NCBI GenBank assembly: GCA_039802265.1
Contig: JBDRWI010000018.1
Span: 1-36,526 of the forward strand
Source: a candidate division WOR-3 bacterium
GTDB lineage: Bacteria; Hydrothermota; Tepidihabitantia; SM23-42; JAOAFX01
Direction: 5' to 3'
Length of the DNA: 36,526 nt
Shown here piece after piece: positions 14,075-26,127 of this stretch (positions within the stretch are counted from its first letter, which is position 1; each line of letters begins with the position of its first letter). The position numbers and the translations under genes were made by a program. The notes under the pieces are model-generated. The model had not been told where the DNA came from. It saw only the letters and a program-made list of their open reading frames with translations, and searched no databases.

Positions 14075-15598
14075 CTACCTTTCATCAAATTTTTTAATCC
14101 TATTTAAGAGGGGCTTCAATCTTAATATCGTTGCGAATTTCTTTGCCTCTTTGAGTTCTGCTGAATAATTCAATTTCAAATATTTCTTCACTTCAGCCAA
14201 AAGTAAATATGATTGAAGACGGTAATTTATTAAACCATGTTTTTTTACCATCTTTAAATATTCCATCGCCTGCCTTAAGGCATTTTTATAATCTTTTATT
14301 TTTAACTTATATTTAATATAGACTGGTAGAATTTCAAAAACAAATTCCTTAGACCTCCTGGTCAGCAAAAGGGCTTGATTTATAAACTTCCGTGCATCCA
14401 TGATTGTATAGGTGTGCACCTTTTCATGTTTAATAATTAACTCTACAAATAGGATTAAACATTCAACATATTGATTTAAAATCTTATGTTTCCGGGTGAG
14501 TTCATAACTTTCTTTAAGACATTTTAGCGCCTTCTTGGGACAGCCGATTTCCATAAAATATTTTGTTTTATAATTCAAAACTATAGAAATAGAATATGGA
14601 TTTTCAATCTCCCGCGCCAGTGCTTCAGCGCGGTCAAAGAAATTTATACACTTTCTATACCACCCCCTCATTAGGTATATTCGGCCGATATTTACTAAAT
14701 TCTCAATCTTAACCAAAGGGTCTTTTGTTATTTTGAAGAGATTTAGACTCTTTCTATATGCCTTTATGGCTTCATCAAATTTGCCCAGGCTGGTTAAGAG
14801 CGTTCCTTTTGCAAAAAGATTATAATACATTCCATCCAAGCTGTTAATGTCTCTACTGATTTCAAGTGTCTTGTTGACACATTCCATTGCCTTTTTATAA
14901 CTATGTTGTCGCGCTAAAATTGATGCAATGCTATAAAGAAAATCTATCATAGCAGGTCTATCTTGAATTTTCTCGGCAACCCTGAGTCCTTGATTGTAGT
15001 AATTCAATGCCTTCTTGAGAATACCCCTTTCGGAATAGATATTACCGATATCGTTTAGAATAAATGATACTTTTCTTAAGTTATTCTTACCCCTGGCAAT
15101 TTTAAGGGCTTTTTTAAAGAACATAAGCCCTTTGTCATACCGCCCAAGGAGGCAGTGGACAATTCCTTCTGCTACATCAAGTGCCTCCTTTTCAATTTCT
15201 TTAGATAATTTCGGATATCTTTTTAATAGACATTTTGCCTCGGCAAGGGCCTTTATGGACTTTTTATAAAAACCCATCTTGCGTAAAATATGGGAAAAAG
15301 AGAGCAGACCTTTAATATGTTCCAAAATCAACTTGTTTTTACGCGATAAATATAGTGCCTTTTGTATGGAATTGTATGCATCTTCAATCTTGCCTGCCTC
15401 AAGACATAAATCGCTAAGTCCCGCATAGAAAAGTAGCCGGTTTTGTGTTGTTGGCAAAATCTTCAGCATTCTATAATAATCCTTTTCTGCCTCTTCATAA
15501 TTACCCAAGAGTTGAAAGACATTTGCCCGCTCATTTAGTGCATAAACGACGAGGGATTTTCTTCTAACTGTATTTATCAGTGGTGATTTCTTTATCAT
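14075..15598 (-). CDS. TPR cassette protein (intact, cassette 5)
   Basis: Multiple TPRs; N-terminal RRKSLVVYALNERANVFQLLG motif shared with the other cassettes. Confidence 0.85.
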   Translation of the reverse strand: MIKKSPLINTVRRKSLVVYALNERANVFQLLGNYEEAEKDYYRMLKILPTTQNRLLFYAGLSDLCLEAGKIEDAYNSIQKALYLSRKNKLILEHIKGLLSFSHILRKMGFYKKSIKALAEAKCLLKRYPKLSKEIEKEALDVAEGIVHCLLGRYDKGLMFFKKALKIARGKNNLRKVSFILNDIGNIYSERGILKKALNYYNQGLRVAEKIQDRPAMIDFLYSIASILARQHSYKKAMECVNKTLEISRDINSLDGMYYNLFAKGTLLTSLGKFDEAIKAYRKSLNLFKITKDPLVKIENLVNIGRIYLMRGWYRKCINFFDRAEALAREIENPYSISIVLNYKTKYFMEIGCPKKALKCLKESYELTRKHKILNQYVECLILFVELIIKHEKVHTYTIMDARKFINQALLLTRRSKEFVFEILPVYIKYKLKIKDYKNALRQAMEYLKMVKKHGLINYRLQSYLLLAEVKKYLKLNYSAELKEAKKFATILRLKPLLNRIKKFDER

Positions 15599-15627
15599 TG
15601 AATTATCAAATCTTTCACCTTTTTGAA

Positions 15628-16236
15628 CTATAATTTTGCATTAAGATTTTTAAAAATCTCCTTTGCCTTTTGTAGATATTGATTTGCCCTTTTCGTTTCA
15701 TGACTTTTCAGCATCTCGCCATAGTAATAACATGCCTTTGCCAGTCCAAATAACTGTTTCAACTCTTCAAAGATTTTAATCGCCTCTTTGAATTTGCCCT
15801 CTGCACTCTCAATCCTTGCCCATAAAAGCAATGCCTCGGCTCCTACCCTGTCTTGACTTCAACTCTTCAGCCAACTTTTGTGATAATTCAGCGTATATTG
15901 AAGCATCTTCCATTTTATTACGGATAAGTAACAGTTCCGCCAATGAAGTATAAACCATCCGCAGAACCTCTTTATGACCAATCTTTTTTCCAATCTTTTC
16001 TGCCAAGATTAAATATTTTGTTCCCTTTTTATCATCCCCTAACTCAAAATAAATTTTACCGATATTTCTAATTAACACCACTTTTCCCATCTGATCACCA
16101 ATTTCTTCAAGAATTTCTAAAGATTTATTATAATAACCAAACACATTTTGATAATCACCAAGTAGTGAATAAATACAACCAAATTCTTATCAATAAATTT
16201 ATCGATATTCACCTTCTCTTTATATGTTTTAATCAC
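15628..16236 (-). pseudogene. Decayed TPR cassette (cassette 4)
   Basis: GTG 16236 overlaps the upstream TGA and reads MIKTYKEK...DKNLVV; a different frame gives a TPR fragment (GCIYSLLGDY..., continuing into 15809..16144); a frameshift leads to the C-terminal fragment 15628..15831 (KFKEAIKIFEELKQLFGLAKACYYYG). Confidence 0.75.
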
Positions 16237-17528
16237 AGTTTCCATTTTAATTCACTCCATAGTTTTTCAATTTTTTCAAGATAATGCTTGTTCCCTATTC
16301 TTGTAAAAATTTTTTTGGATTTTTTAAGTGGTTCAATTGCTGATTTAAAGTTTCTTTGAGAAATTAAAAATTTAGAATAATAGTAATAAGTAACAGCAAG
16401 TTGATAGTTTTCATTAAGTTTTTCTAATATTTCTATTGACTTCTTGTAATCCTCTTCACTTTTCTCCAACCTTGCCTTTAAAAATAAGACTATTCCCTTC
16501 CTGCTTTCTGACCGCATTTCTTGGGCTAAATCCATTGCTAATTTTATATAAGTTCTGGCATTGTTAATTTCAGCCTTTTTAAAATAATATTGGACAAAAG
16601 TCATAAAGATATCGCATAGAAGCTCTTTTGTTCTTAATTTATTTGCTATTTTTTCAGATTTACGAAGACAGTCCAATCCTTTTTTGAAATCATCTGTCTC
16701 AATGTAAATATCGGCAATTGCCTTTAAACAGCAGGCGCTGCTCCATTTATCTCCGATTTTTTCGTATATTGTCAATGCCTCCTTAAAATATTCCAGGCTC
16801 GTATTATAAATAGAAAGCACATTGTAAACTTCACCAATACTTAATAAGCTTGTTGCTTTACCCCAGATATCTCCAATCTCTTCCTTTATTTTAAAAGAAT
16901 TTATCAAGTAGCTGAGAGATTTTTTATATTCTCCAATGCGGGCGTATATTGCACCGATATTATGTAGAGTCTTCGCCATTGTTCCCTTATCTTTCAATTT
17001 TTCTTTTAGTCTAAGTGACTTCTTATAGTAATAAAGTGCCTTGGAATACTTACCCAGGGAATAATAGACATTGCCAATATTATTTAAGGCGGCCGATGCC
17101 CTTAAACAATTTTTAACTTCCTCTGCTATCTCTAAGCTTTTATTATAATAATTAAGGGCAAAATTAAATTTACCGAGTGAGTAATAAACATTGGCAATTT
17201 GATGTAAAGCCTCTGAAATACCATTTCTATCTGATAGTTTTTTATAAATACCTAATGCCTTTTTTGATAATTTTAGCATATCTTCAAATTTTGCCATAGA
17301 AAGATAAAAATCGGTAAAATTCATAAGAAGGTCAGCTAAAACCTTTTTATCATCGGTCTCATTTGCTAAATCAATGCCCTTTTCAATATCTAAACATGCC
17401 TTCGCTTTTTCTCCAATAAAGTTATAAACAGATGCCCTTGCTTTATAAGCCCGAATCAAAAGATGCTTTCTTGAATCTCCATTCATCGGATTTCTTGGGT
17501 AATTGGTTCCTCGATTTTCTTTAGCCAC
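16233..17528 (-). CDS. TPR cassette protein (intact, cassette 3); start may be ATG 17486
   Basis: MNGDSRKHLLIRAYKARASVYNFIG motif; repeated LNNIGNVYYSLG-type TPRs; shared C-terminal LAVTYYYY...KIF motif. Confidence 0.87.
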   Translation of the reverse strand: MAKENRGTNYPRNPMNGDSRKHLLIRAYKARASVYNFIGEKAKACLDIEKGIDLANETDDKKVLADLLMNFTDFYLSMAKFEDMLKLSKKALGIYKKLSDRNGISEALHQIANVYYSLGKFNFALNYYNKSLEIAEEVKNCLRASAALNNIGNVYYSLGKYSKALYYYKKSLRLKEKLKDKGTMAKTLHNIGAIYARIGEYKKSLSYLINSFKIKEEIGDIWGKATSLLSIGEVYNVLSIYNTSLEYFKEALTIYEKIGDKWSSACCLKAIADIYIETDDFKKGLDCLRKSEKIANKLRTKELLCDIFMTFVQYYFKKAEINNARTYIKLAMDLAQEMRSESRKGIVLFLKARLEKSEEDYKKSIEILEKLNENYQLAVTYYYYSKFLISQRNFKSAIEPLKKSKKIFTRIGNKHYLEKIEKLWSELKWKL

Positions 17529-17532
17529 ACCT

Positions 17533-18059
17533 TTAGCTCGATTTTTTCAAAGTTCCATTTTGTAGATATTTTATTAACCCTTCGCCCCACTCAGGTGGGG
17601 CGCTACAATATTCACCATAGTAAAAATATGCCCTTGCTATCCCAAAGGGCTGTTTAAGTTCTTCAAAGATTTTTAGCGCAGACTTGAAATAGCTGTCAGC
17701 CATTAGCTATTAGCGGATGAGGGCCCCGCCTGTGAAGGGATCACAGCTGCCCTGCCCCGGCGGTCACCAATTTCTTCTCTTATCTTCAAAGATTTATTAT
17801 AATATTCAAGTGCTCGGTCGTACTTGCCAAACCTACTATACACAAGGCCGATTTTGTTGAGGTTTTCACCAATCCCTTTCCGTTCATTTAGTTCTTCATA
17901 TAGTTTCAGGGATTCCTGCGCAGAGTTAAACATCCCATCATACTGACTGATTAAACCGTAAATAGTTGCTAATAATTTTTTTGTGCCAGTTAAATCATAA
18001 ACCTCAGCCCTATCCATCAATGCCTTGATTAAGAGATTTTTTCTGGAAAGATTGGTCAT
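17533..18059 (-). pseudogene. Decayed, internally deleted TPR cassette (cassette 2)
   Basis: 17703..18059 has the start motif MTNLSRKNLLIKALMDRAEVYDLTG and about 2 TPRs; 17533..17703 encodes the C-terminal motif FKSALKIFEELKQPFGIARAYFYYGEY. Confidence 0.75.
17583..17606 (-). repeat. GTAG-type REP-like palindrome
   Basis: GTAG-CGCCCCAC-CTGA-GTGGGGCG: perfect 8-bp GC-rich stem preceded by GTAG, in AT-rich context. Confidence 0.5.
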
Positions 18060-19495
18060 CTGGTTATTTGGTTATTGGGTAATTGCGTAATTGAATCCCT
18101 GGTCTTTTCCAACCACAACTTTGCCCCGGCTTTTCGGAAAATTTCTCTCGCCGCTCTCAAATTTTCCTCCGCCTCTTCGTTTCCTATGCGCATTAGAAAA
18201 GTTCCATAGTGAAAATGAGCCCGGGCAAGTTCATAGATTTGATTCAATCTTTTGAATATTGAAATTGCTTTTTTGAATTTTTCCATTATCTCATCGTGAA
18301 GTCTATTTTTTTTATAAGTAGTTCTTATTACATTTCCAAGTAACTTTTGACCCAATATTCGCGCTGAAAGTAAGAATGAATCTCCTCTTGCTAATGGCGC
18401 TTGCAATTCCTCGGCAAATTTTGTGGCCGTTTTTGTCCGGATACTCGCCTCGTTTAAATTGCCTTGCATCAATGCCAATTCTGCCAGTGATAAAGTTATT
18501 CTATGCCGTAGCATTTTGTCATTTATTTGTAAAGCAATTTTTCTGCCACTATTTAAGTACTCCTGTGCTTTACCAATAATCCCCTGCTCTAAATAAATCT
18601 TACCCAAAATATTGTAGCAGTATCCAATACCGCTTTTATCGCCAATTTTTTGTGATATCTGCAGTGACTTCCCCATATGGCCTATGGCTTCTTTATATTC
18701 TCCACGAAGATAACTTAAATACCCCAAATTATATAATGTAAATGCCTCACCCGTGGGATGATTAACTTCCCTTTGAATCCGAAGTGATTCTTTGGCAAAC
18801 TTAATCGCCTTTAAATATTCTCCGTTATTGATAAAGGCAACTGCTAAATTATTAAGGGTAATTGCCTGCCCCCGACGGTCACCGGTCTTTTTTCTGACTT
18901 TTAAAGCCTTTAATAAAAACGCCATATATTTATCTGGTTTACCAATCCTTTTATACCACGAAGCAATGCTGTTCAAGCAAATTCCAATTGTTTGTAGATC
19001 CTTTAATTTTCTAGCCAATTTTAAACATTGCCAGTACTTCTTTAGTTCCCTTTCATATTGCCCGAGATAAAAATAGGTAAACCCGATGTTCAAGAAGTTA
19101 TCACTTAAATGGTCGGTAATTCCCAGGTTCCTTTTAATCCTTAAAGCCTTTATAAAACACCTGTTGGCTTGACGATAATTACCAATATAATAATAACAGA
19201 CACCCATATTATTGAAACAGGCTGCCTCAATTTTTTTATCACGAATCTTTTTACCGATTTGTAAAACACGATTAATTCCTTTGATTGCCTGCCGCATTGC
19301 ACCGAGAGAGGTATAAATTTCATATTGTTCCAGCAAACAATATGCTCTGTTTTTCAAATCGTTAAACTTTTGGGTTATATTTATCCCCCTTTTTAAATCA
19401 ATCAGTGCCTCCTCATTCCTGCCGACCAGACTATATATTACAGCCCGACTCCTTAATGAACGGAGCAGTAGTTCTTCCCTTGAATTTTCAGTCAT
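18056..19495 (-). CDS. TPR cassette protein (intact, cassette 1), 479 aa from ATG 19495
   Basis: Starts MTENSREELLLRSLRSRAVIYSLVG. The 33 extra codons in ORF 18056..19594 resemble the C-terminal tail of a previous cassette. Confidence 0.85.
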   Translation of the reverse strand: MTENSREELLLRSLRSRAVIYSLVGRNEEALIDLKRGINITQKFNDLKNRAYCLLEQYEIYTSLGAMRQAIKGINRVLQIGKKIRDKKIEAACFNNMGVCYYYIGNYRQANRCFIKALRIKRNLGITDHLSDNFLNIGFTYFYLGQYERELKKYWQCLKLARKLKDLQTIGICLNSIASWYKRIGKPDKYMAFLLKALKVRKKTGDRRGQAITLNNLAVAFINNGEYLKAIKFAKESLRIQREVNHPTGEAFTLYNLGYLSYLRGEYKEAIGHMGKSLQISQKIGDKSGIGYCYNILGKIYLEQGIIGKAQEYLNSGRKIALQINDKMLRHRITLSLAELALMQGNLNEASIRTKTATKFAEELQAPLARGDSFLLSARILGQKLLGNVIRTTYKKNRLHDEIMEKFKKAISIFKRLNQIYELARAHFHYGTFLMRIGNEEAEENLRAAREIFRKAGAKLWLEKTRDSITQLPNNQITR

Positions 19496-19659
19496 TGAGT
19501 TGTCTTGCCCTTTTAATACTTTAGCCCCGGCTTTTTTAAGAATCCTTTTTGCTTCCTTCAAATATCCCAGCGCCTTTTCGCTATTCCCTTTCATTTGATA
19601 AATCAGACTCCGCCTTTATTTGTTTGTATCAAGAGTTTTCTTCTAAAATCTTGCGTCAT
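19496..19659 (-). pseudogene. Collapsed TPR cassette remnant (cassette 0)
   Basis: 19603..19659 reads MTQDFRRKLLIQ... (start motif) and is followed directly by a cassette-tail-like segment KALGYLKEAKRILKKAGAKVL (compare NLRAAREIFRKAGAKLW). Confidence 0.6.
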
Positions 19660-19706
19660 TTGGACTGCTTGGTTATTGACTAAATTGAGTTGCGACCTTT
19701 TTTAAG

Positions 19707-22415
19707 CTATATTTTACCCTCCAATTTTTCATATGATTCAATCGCCCGGGTGAAGAACTCTATTGCCTCTTCATTGGCATAGACCTTTTTTGCCTTTTCT
19801 CCAGCCTCAACCGAATAAAGGAGAGATTTGTCATAATCTCCGCCAGCATAAAAATGGTAGGAGAGTAATCCCAGAAATTCCTCCTTGCGGTCCTTGAGTT
19901 CTGTTTCAATAAATGTGCCGACCTGGCGGTGTAACTCCTGTTTTCTTGCGAAAGAAAGTGTTCCGTAGGCAACTTCCCGGGTTAGGATATGTTTGAAGAA
20001 ATAACGTGCCTGCTTCTCACCTTTTTCTTCTTTTATCAGGTCAAGGCGCCCAAGATTATGGAGTGATTTTTTCAAAATCTGTGATTGGGGATAAATTCCA
20101 TTAAGCAAAAATTCATCAAACTCTCTCCCCAATATGGAAGCAACCTGTAGCACATCCCGGTCCTGTAAATCAAGTCGATCAATTCTTGATAATATTAATG
20201 CCTCAACAGTATCTGGTAACTGAAGTCTTTTAATATCCCCCTTGAACCGCCAGGCTCCTTTTTCTTCAACCACATATCCCTGCTCAATCATTGACTTCAC
20301 CAATTCCTCAATGTAAAAAGGATTCCCCTGTGATTTTTCAACGATTGCCTTTTTTAAGTCGTCAGGGATATCTTTCATGCCAAGCAGGTTCTTAACCAGT
20401 TCAATGCTATCTTCTTTAGAAAGTTCTTTTAGAACTATTTCGGTTGTCCAATTCTTTTCCATAAATTCTTCTTTCTTCTTCAATGGCCGATAAACAAGTG
20501 TAAGAAGAATCGGTTTGTTTTCTATGTTTCTGCCGATGTAGTTAACAAGTTCCATTGAAGCCGAATCGGCCCAGTGCAGGTCTTCAATGATTATATTAAC
20601 CGGTTTTGATCGGGTAATGAACTTTATAAAATCAAAGATAATATCAAGGACACGTTGTTTCTTAATCTTGGCATCCAGATATTTTGTCAGCGAGGTCTCG
20701 GGAAATGGCACTCCCATAAGTTCACCAATAACCGGAAGCCAGTCAATAAGTTTCTTATCCACCCCAATACTGGTTCTTTTTATCTTTTCCGCTCTAATCT
20801 TGACCGAATCCGCAGGGAGAATACCAAAAAACTCAGTGAGGATATCTACCCAGGGATGGTAGGAAAATGCACTGCCATAAGAGATACAATTCCCTTTTAA
20901 AACCTGGAATCCGGCCTTTTCGGACAACTTGATTAGCTCCTGAGTCAACCTTGACTTTCCAATCCCTGGTTCACCAGTGATTGCAAGAATCTGCCCTTTA
21001 TTACGGGTGCATAATTCAACCAAATCTTTAATCTTGGCAAGTTCCCTATCCCGGCCAACAATCCTTTCACTTTCAGAGATCCATCTCGTTAATGCCTTCT
21101 TCTCAATCTCTTTCTTTTTGGTAAGCTTGTAAACCGGTATTTTTTTCTTCTTCCCTTTAAATTCCTTTTCGCCTAAAGATTCATAATCAAAAAGGGCAAA
21201 TGTTTTATTAAAGATTGGCTCACTTACCACAATTGTTCGATTTTCTGCCTTTGCGCCAAGACGGGCAGAAAGGTTTACTGCATCGCCAAGGGTTGTATAT
21301 TCTCGTCTTAATTCATTGCCCACCGGCGCCGCAAAGATTGAGCCCGAATTTATTCCGGCCCGCAAATTTAGCTTCTTTAGTTCCGGATGATTCAAGATTT
21401 CATAGGTAAATAGAACTGCCCGCTTTTCATCATCCTCATAGGCCTTTGGGAATCCAAATACCGCAAGGATTCTTTCGCTATCTTTATATATATCAATCGC
21501 ATTTATCCAGCCATCGTACTTTTTTATGGTGGCATCAACAATGGAATAAAAATGCATGAGTAATTCCTGAGCCTTTCTGGGATTCTCGTCATAGGGGATA
21601 CCACTAAAGTGTAAAAAGACAACGGCAATCTTCCTATGTTCACCATCTTTATGGTCAAAAAATGGCTTCAATTCAATCCTCTTTAACAACCAATCTGGAA
21701 TGTAATTCTCAAGAACTGCGAAGTTTTTCTTTACTACATCAGGTGATAATTTTTTGATCTCAATCTGCGGTTCAACCGATTTCTTCTTCATTCCTATATA
21801 TTTCCAGAGATGTGCCTTGGGTTTGAAAATAACATCCCTGAGTTCATTTTTAATCTCTGAACTGACAACAATCTCACCGGGTCCAGCAAAATCAATCATT
21901 GCCATCAGTTGATTTACTATTCTGCCCCCGAGAAAGAAATTATTCTTCAAGTCCTGAAAATAGACTGTTCCCTTTGTTAGCCCGATATGGACCTTAATCT
22001 TGAAGGTACCAACCTTTGTCTTTGTTACGGAATGGTCTCTAACGAATTTGGCAATCTCAACACCGGCATTAATCGCCCTCTCACTTGATGATTGAATCTC
22101 GGTCTCCTCAGGGAAAAAAGCCAAAAATGCATCGCCGCCGAACCGATAGATATCTCCCTGCCATTTATAGACAATTTTAATCAGAGGACCAAAGAAGTCA
22201 TTGATTATTTTATTCACCTCTTCAGCTCCTTCCTTACCCAAACGGGCAAGTTTTTCGCTCATCGCAGTAAAACCAGAGATATCAGCGAAGAGTAAGGTCG
22301 TATTAAAGGTCTCAACCGGCTTAGGTCCTTCCTTGAAAATCTTTGCTGCGACAACCTTCCGGGGTAAAAAAGTTGCCATTGAGATAAATAATTTTTCTCT
22401 TTCGGCCATCTTCAT
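19707..22415 (-). CDS. Dual class III adenylate/guanylate cyclase + AAA_16/STAND ATPase protein (soluble-AC-like), lacking the C-terminal TPR array
   Basis: LLFADISGFT...FGGDAFL (domain 1); GINSG...YTTLGDAVNLSARL (domain 2); Walker A GEPGIGKS; Walker B IIIEDLHWAD; GNPFYIEE; LILSRIDRL; FKHILTREVAY. Confidence 0.92.
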   Translation of the reverse strand: MKMAEREKLFISMATFLPRKVVAAKIFKEGPKPVETFNTTLLFADISGFTAMSEKLARLGKEGAEEVNKIINDFFGPLIKIVYKWQGDIYRFGGDAFLAFFPEETEIQSSSERAINAGVEIAKFVRDHSVTKTKVGTFKIKVHIGLTKGTVYFQDLKNNFFLGGRIVNQLMAMIDFAGPGEIVVSSEIKNELRDVIFKPKAHLWKYIGMKKKSVEPQIEIKKLSPDVVKKNFAVLENYIPDWLLKRIELKPFFDHKDGEHRKIAVVFLHFSGIPYDENPRKAQELLMHFYSIVDATIKKYDGWINAIDIYKDSERILAVFGFPKAYEDDEKRAVLFTYEILNHPELKKLNLRAGINSGSIFAAPVGNELRREYTTLGDAVNLSARLGAKAENRTIVVSEPIFNKTFALFDYESLGEKEFKGKKKKIPVYKLTKKKEIEKKALTRWISESERIVGRDRELAKIKDLVELCTRNKGQILAITGEPGIGKSRLTQELIKLSEKAGFQVLKGNCISYGSAFSYHPWVDILTEFFGILPADSVKIRAEKIKRTSIGVDKKLIDWLPVIGELMGVPFPETSLTKYLDAKIKKQRVLDIIFDFIKFITRSKPVNIIIEDLHWADSASMELVNYIGRNIENKPILLTLVYRPLKKKEEFMEKNWTTEIVLKELSKEDSIELVKNLLGMKDIPDDLKKAIVEKSQGNPFYIEELVKSMIEQGYVVEEKGAWRFKGDIKRLQLPDTVEALILSRIDRLDLQDRDVLQVASILGREFDEFLLNGIYPQSQILKKSLHNLGRLDLIKEEKGEKQARYFFKHILTREVAYGTLSFARKQELHRQVGTFIETELKDRKEEFLGLLSYHFYAGGDYDKSLLYSVEAGEKAKKVYANEEAIEFFTRAIESYEKLEGKI

Positions 22416-25491: not shown

Positions 25492-26127
25492 TTATTTTTT
25501 AAATATCCCAAACAACCCACCCTTTTTTTCCTCTTTTTTTTCTTGTTTATCTTCTCCCAAGGGTGTTGCCTTCTTCTCCTCAGCGGTCTTTTGAATAATC
25601 TTCACCAATCCGGATGAGATAAGCCCATAGAGGATACGGCCAACTTCAAACTCTGAGAGATTAACGCGCCGGGCAATCTGTTCAATGGTCAATGACCCAT
25701 CCACAAAGGCAAGAACCTTCCACTCCTCGGGTCTCAAGTTTATCTTTTCCACTCCCACATCCGGCACTTCAACAATCTTGACAATCAGGTCAAAAGAGGG
25801 AATCAATTTTTGAATTTTATTAAATTCATCAATCCTGCGGGCGGCATCAATTATGACCTGTTGAATCGGTAATTCTACAGTCCTTTCCATTGTCTCCTCG
25901 CCGGGTCTGAAGACAAAACGCCCGGTTCGCCATCTCAATATTGAATCAATTGCCTGTTCACCCACCAGATAATTTGTCTTGGCATGAACCACCATTCCTT
26001 CTTTAAAATAAACCACGCCCACATCATTGGGTGATTGAATTCTTAAACTGCCATCCTTAGCACCGAGTTGAATCAATTGAAAGACATCGGTCAACTCAAA
26101 GTCTTCTAAGTTTCCTTCCAGCGCCAT
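25492..26127 (-). CDS. DUF4388 (PatA N-terminal-like) domain protein with C-terminal winged helix
   Basis: LEGNLEDFELTDVFQLI...G.L.I...G.VYF.EG.VVHA; W.TG.F.F; EEWKVLAFVDG. Confidence 0.85.
   Translation of the reverse strand: MALEGNLEDFELTDVFQLIQLGAKDGSLRIQSPNDVGVVYFKEGMVVHAKTNYLVGEQAIDSILRWRTGRFVFRPGEETMERTVELPIQQVIIDAARRIDEFNKIQKLIPSFDLIVKIVEVPDVGVEKINLRPEEWKVLAFVDGSLTIEQIARRVNLSEFEVGRILYGLISSGLVKIIQKTAEEKKATPLGEDKQEKKEEKKGGLFGIFKK

Follow-up and report, generated by a model that had tools for sequence, protein, structure and literature searches.

A tandem C1/C2 pseudo-heterodimeric class III cyclase with a STAND module behind it is found in mammalian soluble adenylyl cyclase (sAC, ADCY10) and in those of its bacterial relatives that have cyclase, STAND and TPR parts in a single chain (e.g., in Chloroflexota, 1,230-1,470 amino acids). 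The bacterial forms are, we assume, those labelled SWACOS type. For MalT and PH0952, the accessible text of PMC6468293 describes the order nucleotide-binding domain (NBD), helical domain, winged-helix domain, arm and TPR sensor, and assigns three hairpins to the arm of PH0952 (residues 394-496); the main autoinhibition comes from the first two, through their packing on the NBD. Both are single-chain transcription regulators with one fixed sensor. The locus considered here, at 14075-22415 in a stretch of 36,526 nucleotides (the window; JBDRWI010000018.1, positions 1 to 36,526) from a candidate division WOR-3 bacterium (GCA_039802265.1), resembles sAC and its relatives in the cyclase and STAND modules, has the same junction register as the fused bacterial forms, and follows the domain order of MalT and PH0952. 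Unlike in sAC, its core chain stops inside the arm, its TPR part is a family of separate genes, here called cassettes, and the adenine-selecting Lys is replaced by Ala; unlike in MalT and PH0952, a cyclase serves as the effector and the sensor has genes of its own. The sensor repeats are absent from the core polypeptide, which, in contrast to STAND NTPases with a TPR sensor, ends at a conserved stop inside the arm.

We ascribe a probability of about 0.65 to the reading that the locus encodes a two-chain STAND receptor, in which an autoinhibited core docks alternative TPR sensor subunits in trans. As modelled, the free TPR proteins probably clip onto the core as alternative sensors. The reading is built on the conservation of the split, the common register, the separate starts of the cassettes, their co-occurrence with the core, the selection acting on them and their swapping between genomes.

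Conservation of the Split

The original prediction for this locus, made from the letters of the window, let a 902-residue core end in a TAG just past a helix pair, and this is confirmed at 22415-19707 on the minus strand. When the core is compared with its 97 best protein matches (37-100% identity, query included), 88 end -2 to +43 residues from the same point, seven continue into TPRs and two are incomplete. The next-ranked proteins (33-35% identity) are all fused (23/23), as are 62 of 68 more distant loci, the rest being open at a contig edge (three), apparently frameshifted (two) or a capped member of the clade (one). Close core homologues (E <= 1e-115) occur in 46 genomes of the phylum set of 271 that was searched, and the core-bearing clade is mostly labelled candidate division WOR-3 at the source. 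In one FastTree tree of STAND regions from 107 sequences (P0001-P0108 without P0086), support for the split clade is 1.0, and inside it there are four separate positions with fused members, which we read, from sequence, as one ancient split with later re-fusions. It had been proposed that cassettes begin in the register of fused homologues, and in the fusions inside the clade (P0029, P0083) the core's last helix indeed runs directly into the cassette motif; the TPR tails of these fusions group with free cassettes in the tree.

No 36-residue window of the core is more conserved than the terminal helix pair, whose column identity in 72 split cores is 0.90, the mean being 0.66. Among fused outgroup proteins (23 compared) the pair is ordinary, and 488 of 867 windows score higher. 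In a capped sister subclade (L040, L081-L085; P0087-P0094, P0096, P0097), the cores have an extra C-terminal helix, which may cap the core itself, and no adjacent cassette (0/6). Both capped and uncapped core types occur in five genomes.

It had been foreseen that the stop at 19707-19709 could be private or an assembly error. Both are ruled out by bridging contigs and by orthologues in other genomes that end at the same place. The contigs come from four runs (X2, X3, X4, X6) of two hot-spring studies and show no listed change at the stop; for X2, X3 and X6 all differences in the contigs over the stop are accounted for elsewhere, and for X4 no change is listed.

Cassettes as Separate Genes

The start of a cassette follows the consensus LLxxALxxRAEVYxLIG, and each intact cassette of the window starts with the helix that comes next in fused homologues. 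Among 51 core loci examined, 36 have uncapped split cores followed by 1.5 kb or more of sequence, six are capped, four are fused and five are too short to judge. Adjacent TPR cassettes are present at 28 of the 36 uncapped split cores, as one to four near-full-length genes, often together with relics, and at none of the four fused cores. The expectation that related loci would keep the split core while cassette number and sequence vary is borne out.

A possible start codon lies at or just before the motif in all 38 motif-bearing open reading frames examined, and the first cassette lies -14 to +211 nucleotides from the core stop, with all frames represented and with TAG, TAA or TGA as the stop. 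Because the cassettes have their own start codons near the motif and because gaps and frames relative to the core stop vary, the sequences indicate that the cassettes are separate proteins; fusion by read-through or frameshifting is ruled out by the varied stops, frames and gaps.

In the pair G008/G010 (L027, L028), the first cassette has, 1129 nucleotides past the core stop, a common in-frame TAA before its last ~76 codons, yet its ratio of nonsynonymous to synonymous substitution rates (dN/dS) is 0.16. At L080 (G253), the core is followed by four tandem TPR genes of 500-600 amino acids with divergent start, and then by a 181-residue gene that by eye resembles a protein binding cyclic nucleotide monophosphates (cNMPs).

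Unlinked Cassettes, Selection and Turnover

When a profile of the cassette start is run against the 271 genomes, 150 matches are listed (E <= 1.4e-9), with 282 weaker ones besides; some lie at contig edges. Among the matches listed, 85 are of stand-alone type (profile position <= 6, open frame of 270-600 amino acids), and these occur in 37 of 46 core genomes and in one of 225 genomes without a core, with up to 5-6 per genome. Among the same matches, 12 of the 21 core genomes from which no training sequence was taken have a stand-alone cassette. Of the nine that have none, three have a fused core only, in one the core is broken, in another the cassette is frameshifted, and a further one has four adjacent TPR genes of divergent type. 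The motif profile run against protein representatives finds mainly long generic TPR proteins.

Unlinked cassettes sit amid housekeeping genes (20 regions fetched). The genome of the window itself (G000) has a fourth intact cassette of ~448 amino acids at C13:32587-33990 (plus strand), with no STAND gene nearby; by reading of translations, it lies between nitroreductase-like and nrdR-like genes. The same genome of 2.3 Mb has at least seven fused STAND-TPR genes (contigs C1, C7, C9, C24, C31, C58, C105), six with a match to a cyclase domain and one GGDEF-like. Such fused expansions are similar in relatives, including those that lack the core.

In ten cassette pairs, three of them unlinked, dN/dS is 0.11-0.41, to be compared with 0.07-0.14 in eight core pairs (one more being saturated) and 0.03-0.17 in six neighbours. 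The unlinked pairs, at 0.18-0.34, come from genomes that also have an adjacent cassette. From these ratios, the cassettes are judged to be under purifying selection.

To illustrate the turnover, consider first the pair G147/G020, in which the cores are 91% identical and the first cassettes 26%; the likeness in DNA ends at the core stop and resumes at the next cassette. The pair G038/G037 is of the same kind (core 90%, first cassette 34% identical). The locus of G008 equals that of G010 minus two cassettes, with the junction inside a repeat of 164 nucleotides, 87% identical, at the cassette 3' ends. Other close pairs retain the same cassette (88-94%). Comparison of these loci indicates that cassettes are exchanged between close relatives. 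As an observation on the core, its synonymous divergence is saturated between G007 and G013 (L033, L032), against a synonymous rate of 0.18-0.81 in neighbours and cassettes, which suggests that in one of the two lineages the core itself was replaced.

Predicted Docking and the Proposed Switch

The idea that cassettes dock through a conserved N-terminal helix was examined by complex prediction with core residues 730-902 and residues 1-200 of one cassette, c2, on our own alignments, with unrelated natural proteins as controls. The predicted complex scores 0.73 and the best of three controls 0.00, so that docking is predicted for this pair; the idea extends to the unlinked cassettes. Of the solved pairs, 116 of 157 reach the mark taken for a complex, as do 2 of 215 mismatched ones; these counts are rough, given that the alignments are our own. 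The runs agree in at least 97% of contacts, the partner has a predicted local distance difference test score (pLDDT) of at least 89, and the predicted interface joins core residues 862-898 to c2 residues 1-24, largely at conserved motif positions on both sides. The core aligns to PH0952 102-470 (Z 13.2, root-mean-square deviation (rmsd) 22, 347 aligned) and to MalT 12-413 (Z 14.1), matches that are weak and have large rmsd; its end corresponds to PH0952 residue 470, inside the arm of that protein.

The mechanism proposed is as follows. Cyclase effector, nucleotide switch and the initial two hairpins of the arm all remain on the core, which would rest closed and off because it retains the two hairpins that clamp the NBD. 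In the modelled docking, the conserved first helix of a cassette would pack on the last helix pair of the core and so complete the arm, and the cassette would supply the third hairpin and a sensor solenoid of about 340-580 amino acids. A ligand of the bound subunit, to judge from the fold probably a peptide or protein, would then open the switch and alter the cyclic-nucleotide output, which stand-alone cNMP-binding proteins would read. With several different subunits in one cell, their genes behind the core and elsewhere, one core could be wired to several inputs, and the repertoire would change as cassettes are gained, replaced, deleted between similar 3' ends or left to decay.

Evidence Against and Rival Explanations

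Several observations weigh against this mechanism. In the capped subclade and in the re-fused forms inside the clade, too, no window ranks above the helix pair, and its conservation may reflect contact with the NBD. Halves of split genes pass the complex prediction by likeness to solved TPR packing, so that the model supports a geometry rather than binding or specificity. The cassette profile was trained on sequences from 25 of the 46 core genomes, and the counts include related, non-independent genomes. G054 and G056 have a core and no cassette was found in them, while G107, which is 98% complete, has two cassettes and no core was found. At 59% identity, the C13 cassette resembles the TPR tail of a single-cyclase fused paralogue on C105, and could, by this likeness, be a partial duplicate of it. 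Finally, no whole-gene positive selection is seen by dN/dS in the ten cassette pairs. As a separate observation on G107, its two free cassettes (L099:5250-8247) lie head-to-head with two fused STAND-TPR genes.

One rival reading has a core that is independent of TPRs, with the free TPR genes as fission or duplication products of fused STAND-TPR paralogues that serve other partners. The capped cores without adjacent cassette, the intermixing of cassettes with fused-paralogue tails in the tree, the likeness of C13 to the C105 tail and the break in co-occurrence at G107 agree with this. We nevertheless hold it to be improbable, since among the matches listed the stand-alone cassettes follow the core (37/46 against 1/225) although relatives without a core carry many fused paralogues, and since cassettes are tightly linked to the core at 28 of 36 loci and have repeatedly been re-fused in register. 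The case is different if only one cassette per genome works with the core at a time and the others are passengers of birth and death, so that interchangeability is evolutionary and not physiological. Half of the units in the window are relics, c6 is broken in a second population, and many genomes have a single adjacent cassette, and we count this as a minor possibility; unlinked cassettes retain the docking motif and purifying selection alongside an adjacent cassette, and, among the matches listed, a genome may have up to 5-6 stand-alone cassettes, which speaks for more than one working partner.

The TPR subunits could also be guards or inhibitors, which hold the core off (compare the NBD-sensor contact in MalT and PH0952) until their removal, cleavage or titration, e.g., by a phage protein, frees the cyclase. 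In the accessible part of PMC6468293, TPR sensors add to autoinhibition in STANDs, and in that of PMC12802110, full-length sAC is less active than its truncated form. The core of the present locus retains, however, the hairpins of the arm to which the main autoinhibition is due, there are genomes that keep a core although no cassette was found in them, and the long and diverse solenoids exceed what an inhibitor needs, which makes a guard unlikely. The original prediction further allowed that cassettes are recruited into the core by recombination. As a working mechanism this is not supported, as the cassettes share no sequence with the core, stand in varied frames and have unlinked copies. More generally, a joining of core and cassette at the level of DNA, RNA or translation (recombination, read-through or ribosome bypass) might be entertained from the few loci (G021, G004) where core and first cassette share a frame across the stop and from the seven fused proteins inside the clade, but it is rendered highly improbable by the variation of stops, gaps and frames already given, by the lack of a repeat common to core end and cassette starts (among the repeats listed), by the lack of a recombinase seen nearby and by the many unlinked cassettes. 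The two-chain receptor with docked alternative sensors is thus the reading that we retain.

The Array of the Window

The features of the locus are collected in Table 1.

Table 1. Coordinates in the window of the core gene, the cassettes, their relics and the 3'-end repeat
Feature	Position	Strand	Description
Core, 902 amino acids	19707..22415	-	sAC/ADCY10-like tandem class III cyclase, residues ~1-437; STAND NOD, ~446-820; two arm hairpins, 822-900; TAG stop; from Pfam, PDB sequence and fold matches and AF2 model
Core terminal helix pair, residues 861-900	19716..19835	-	predicted docking surface; conservation peak of core
Relic c1	19496..19659	-	18 codons of a cassette start (19659-19603) and a scar of 33 codons from a cassette C-terminus (19594-19496), which shares the frame of c2
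Cassette c2, intact stand-alone TPR subunit, 479 amino acids	18056..19495	-	docking helix at residues 6-25; start motif 36 bits; predicted complex
Relic c3	17533..18059	-	docking helix kept; internal deletion; C-terminal tail frameshifted
Cassette c4, intact stand-alone TPR subunit, 417 amino acids	16233..17486	-	start motif 31 bits; TPR_12
Relic c5	15628..16236	-	3' half of a cassette in shifted frames; without docking helix
Cassette c6, intact in window, 507 amino acids, most divergent	14075..15598	-	start motif 28 bits
89-nucleotide 3'-end repeat, three copies, 61-73% identical	15716-15804, 17612-17700, 18201-18289		codes for shared C-terminal tail

Where six co-oriented units had been described behind the core, six-frame reading gives three intact genes (c2, c4, c6) and three relics (c1, c3, c5), and in both hot-spring studies there are contigs that match the relics gap-free. 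The overlaps of start and stop are present as reported, ATGA at 18059-18056 and GTGA at 16236-16233. A related N-terminal start, claimed for all six units, is found at 28-36 bits in c2 (19495), c3 (18059), c4 (17486) and c6 (15598) and is missing from c5, for which the proposed start DKNLVV belongs to a different frame, across an internal repeat, and scores 3 bits. The C-terminal tail thought common to most units is reflected in the three copies of the 3'-end repeat and is not present in c6; in relatives, 3' ends of this kind mark where arrays have gained or lost cassettes.

That the sensor was split off is in line with the conserved end of the core (88/97). That it was then amplified does not hold for this array: c2, c4 and c6 are mutually 25-30% identical and sit on distant tree branches, by which recent tandem duplication is ruled out. 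Because of these distances, and because C13 resembles the tail of a fused paralogue, the array is, on its sequence, a collection of cassettes rather than a fresh amplification.

The model of c2 is all-helical (pLDDT 93.5), and a fold search with it returns generic peptide-binding TPR solenoids (LGN, TSK, APPBP2), which do not pinpoint a ligand; ESM Atlas gives generic TPR clusters only. A scan for promoters and terminators is at chance level (43 vs 36.7 +/- 5.6 and 12 vs 9.1 +/- 3.2), no recombinase is found among the 28 open reading frames of the window that were scanned, and the repeats listed include none shared by core end and cassette starts.

Two observations concern variation between populations. 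The only indels listed are two of one base in c6 (window 14239 and 14802), in the runs X4 and X6 of the second study, the first of which would end c6 at codon 267 in that population. In run X2, one contig over window 17478-19700 (depth 5.3, shorter side 30 nucleotides, 6 differences in 54 nucleotides) links the end of a diverged core to the point where c4 begins, a weak hint of a co-occurring relative with a shorter array.

Core Domains and the Question of the Product

The AF2 model of the core has a mean pLDDT of 85.8. Two stretches match human AC10, the best PDB sequence match has E 1e-25, and residues 1-437 superimpose on the human sAC fold with Z 38.9 and rmsd 3.0 over 416 aligned residues. 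D45, D95, N381 and R385 are invariant in 72 of 72 split cores, and we take D45 and D95 to be the metal-binding Asp pair in C1, and N381 and R385 to be the transition-state Asn and Arg in C2. The STAND NOD is intact (AAA_16, E 5.5e-23), with G486 and K487 (Walker A), D612 (Walker B), G697-N698-P699 (GxP) and H809 (winged helix) invariant, and its fold matches are ZAR1, MalT and PH0952.

Positions 306 and 374 are presumably the base-selecting ones, where Lys and Thr select adenine. In the window these are Ala306 and Thr374 (codons 21498-21500 and 21294-21296), so that the pair is incomplete, and because the adenine-selecting Lys is Ala, cyclic AMP (cAMP) is, from sequence, doubtful as the product of this core. 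Over the 72 cores the pair co-varies (K/T 37, A/A 25, A/T 2) with D308 invariant, and that a third of the cores have lost the two residues together possibly points to a changed messenger. The genome of the window has four cNMP-binding domains, in short open reading frames on other contigs, and 11 matches to cyclase domains.

Gene Context and the Possibility of Defence

A defensive role, which had been put forward for the locus, gets no backing from gene context. The neighbours in the window are metabolic (Pfam), the gene context is of a housekeeping kind, and over the window and 38 downstream neighbours examined no defence-island surroundings are found. PADLOC matches occur in three of these 38 neighbours (38 of 78 listed), each over part of a mad2 or subtilase profile. 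There is no cNMP-binding TIR or membrane effector beside the cyclase in the window, matches to the PycC profile are weak (best E 2e-19), and no Avs profile matches the locus. Defence is possible but unsupported, and general intracellular sensing is as likely. A DUF4388 protein of the window (25492-26127, minus strand) has weak PADLOC matches (E about 1e-4) to the helix-turn-helix part of CARF/Csa3 profiles, which are probably generic.

Comparison with Known Systems

In the accessible text of PMC13581612, Avs and other defence STANDs, which likewise join a STAND and a TPR sensor to an enzymatic effector, have sensors described in cis; split proteins are named in one sentence of its methods, and its seven supplements have no match for cyclase, WOR-3 or split. 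The present locus differs from Avs and from Pycsar/Pucsar also in that no defence island surrounds it and the window has no cNMP effector beside it. STAND-fused cyclases are mentioned as a predicted immune clade in the part of 10.64898/2026.08.12.744502 that is accessible. Switching by shufflons or silent cassettes needs a recombinase and repeats shared by the expression site and the cassettes, while here neither is seen and the cassettes have their own starts. The plant receptor ZAR1 with its ZRK pseudokinase adaptors (PMC9539561, accessible part) is an analogy only, in that a conserved STAND hub widens its recognition through variable, separately encoded partners. ZAR1 keeps its own leucine-rich repeats and binds unrelated kinases, whereas here the receptor's own sensor domain is detachable.

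That effectors or adaptors can be separate genes in STAND systems is known from the accessible parts of PMC13581612, PMC7159879, 10.64898/2026.08.12.744502, PMC13236601, PMC6468293, PMC12802110 and PMC9539561. In a literature search for which most subscription papers were outside reach, no published STAND that is severed from its own TPR sensor and has multiple free sensors was found. The parts are known, namely sAC-like cyclase-STAND-TPR proteins and switches of the MalT type; the conserved split with a free sensor repertoire appears, on this search, to be new.

As a tentative extension of the two-chain reading, the locus may be an NLR-like receptor with a plug-in repertoire, where a vertically kept core is programmed post-translationally by TPR subunits in trans, which pass from strain to strain and are drawn from, or go back to, fused-paralogue tails; it would then serve combinatorial pattern recognition, possibly of phage proteins, with a messenger other than cAMP in the Ala/Ala subclade. 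If the docking is real, it illustrates how many inputs can be served by a single switch. The natural interface, one helix on one helix pair, would be small enough to be of use for building modular cyclic-nucleotide biosensors, and the system could be reconstituted to ask for the role of the STAND-TPR region in sAC-type cyclases, which in the accessible text of PMC12802110 is still an open question for human sAC. In the STAND and NLR receptors compared here, sensor and switch share one chain, and a new specificity means a new full-length gene; in the present locus the receptor is cut at the arm, and what is conserved is the socket.

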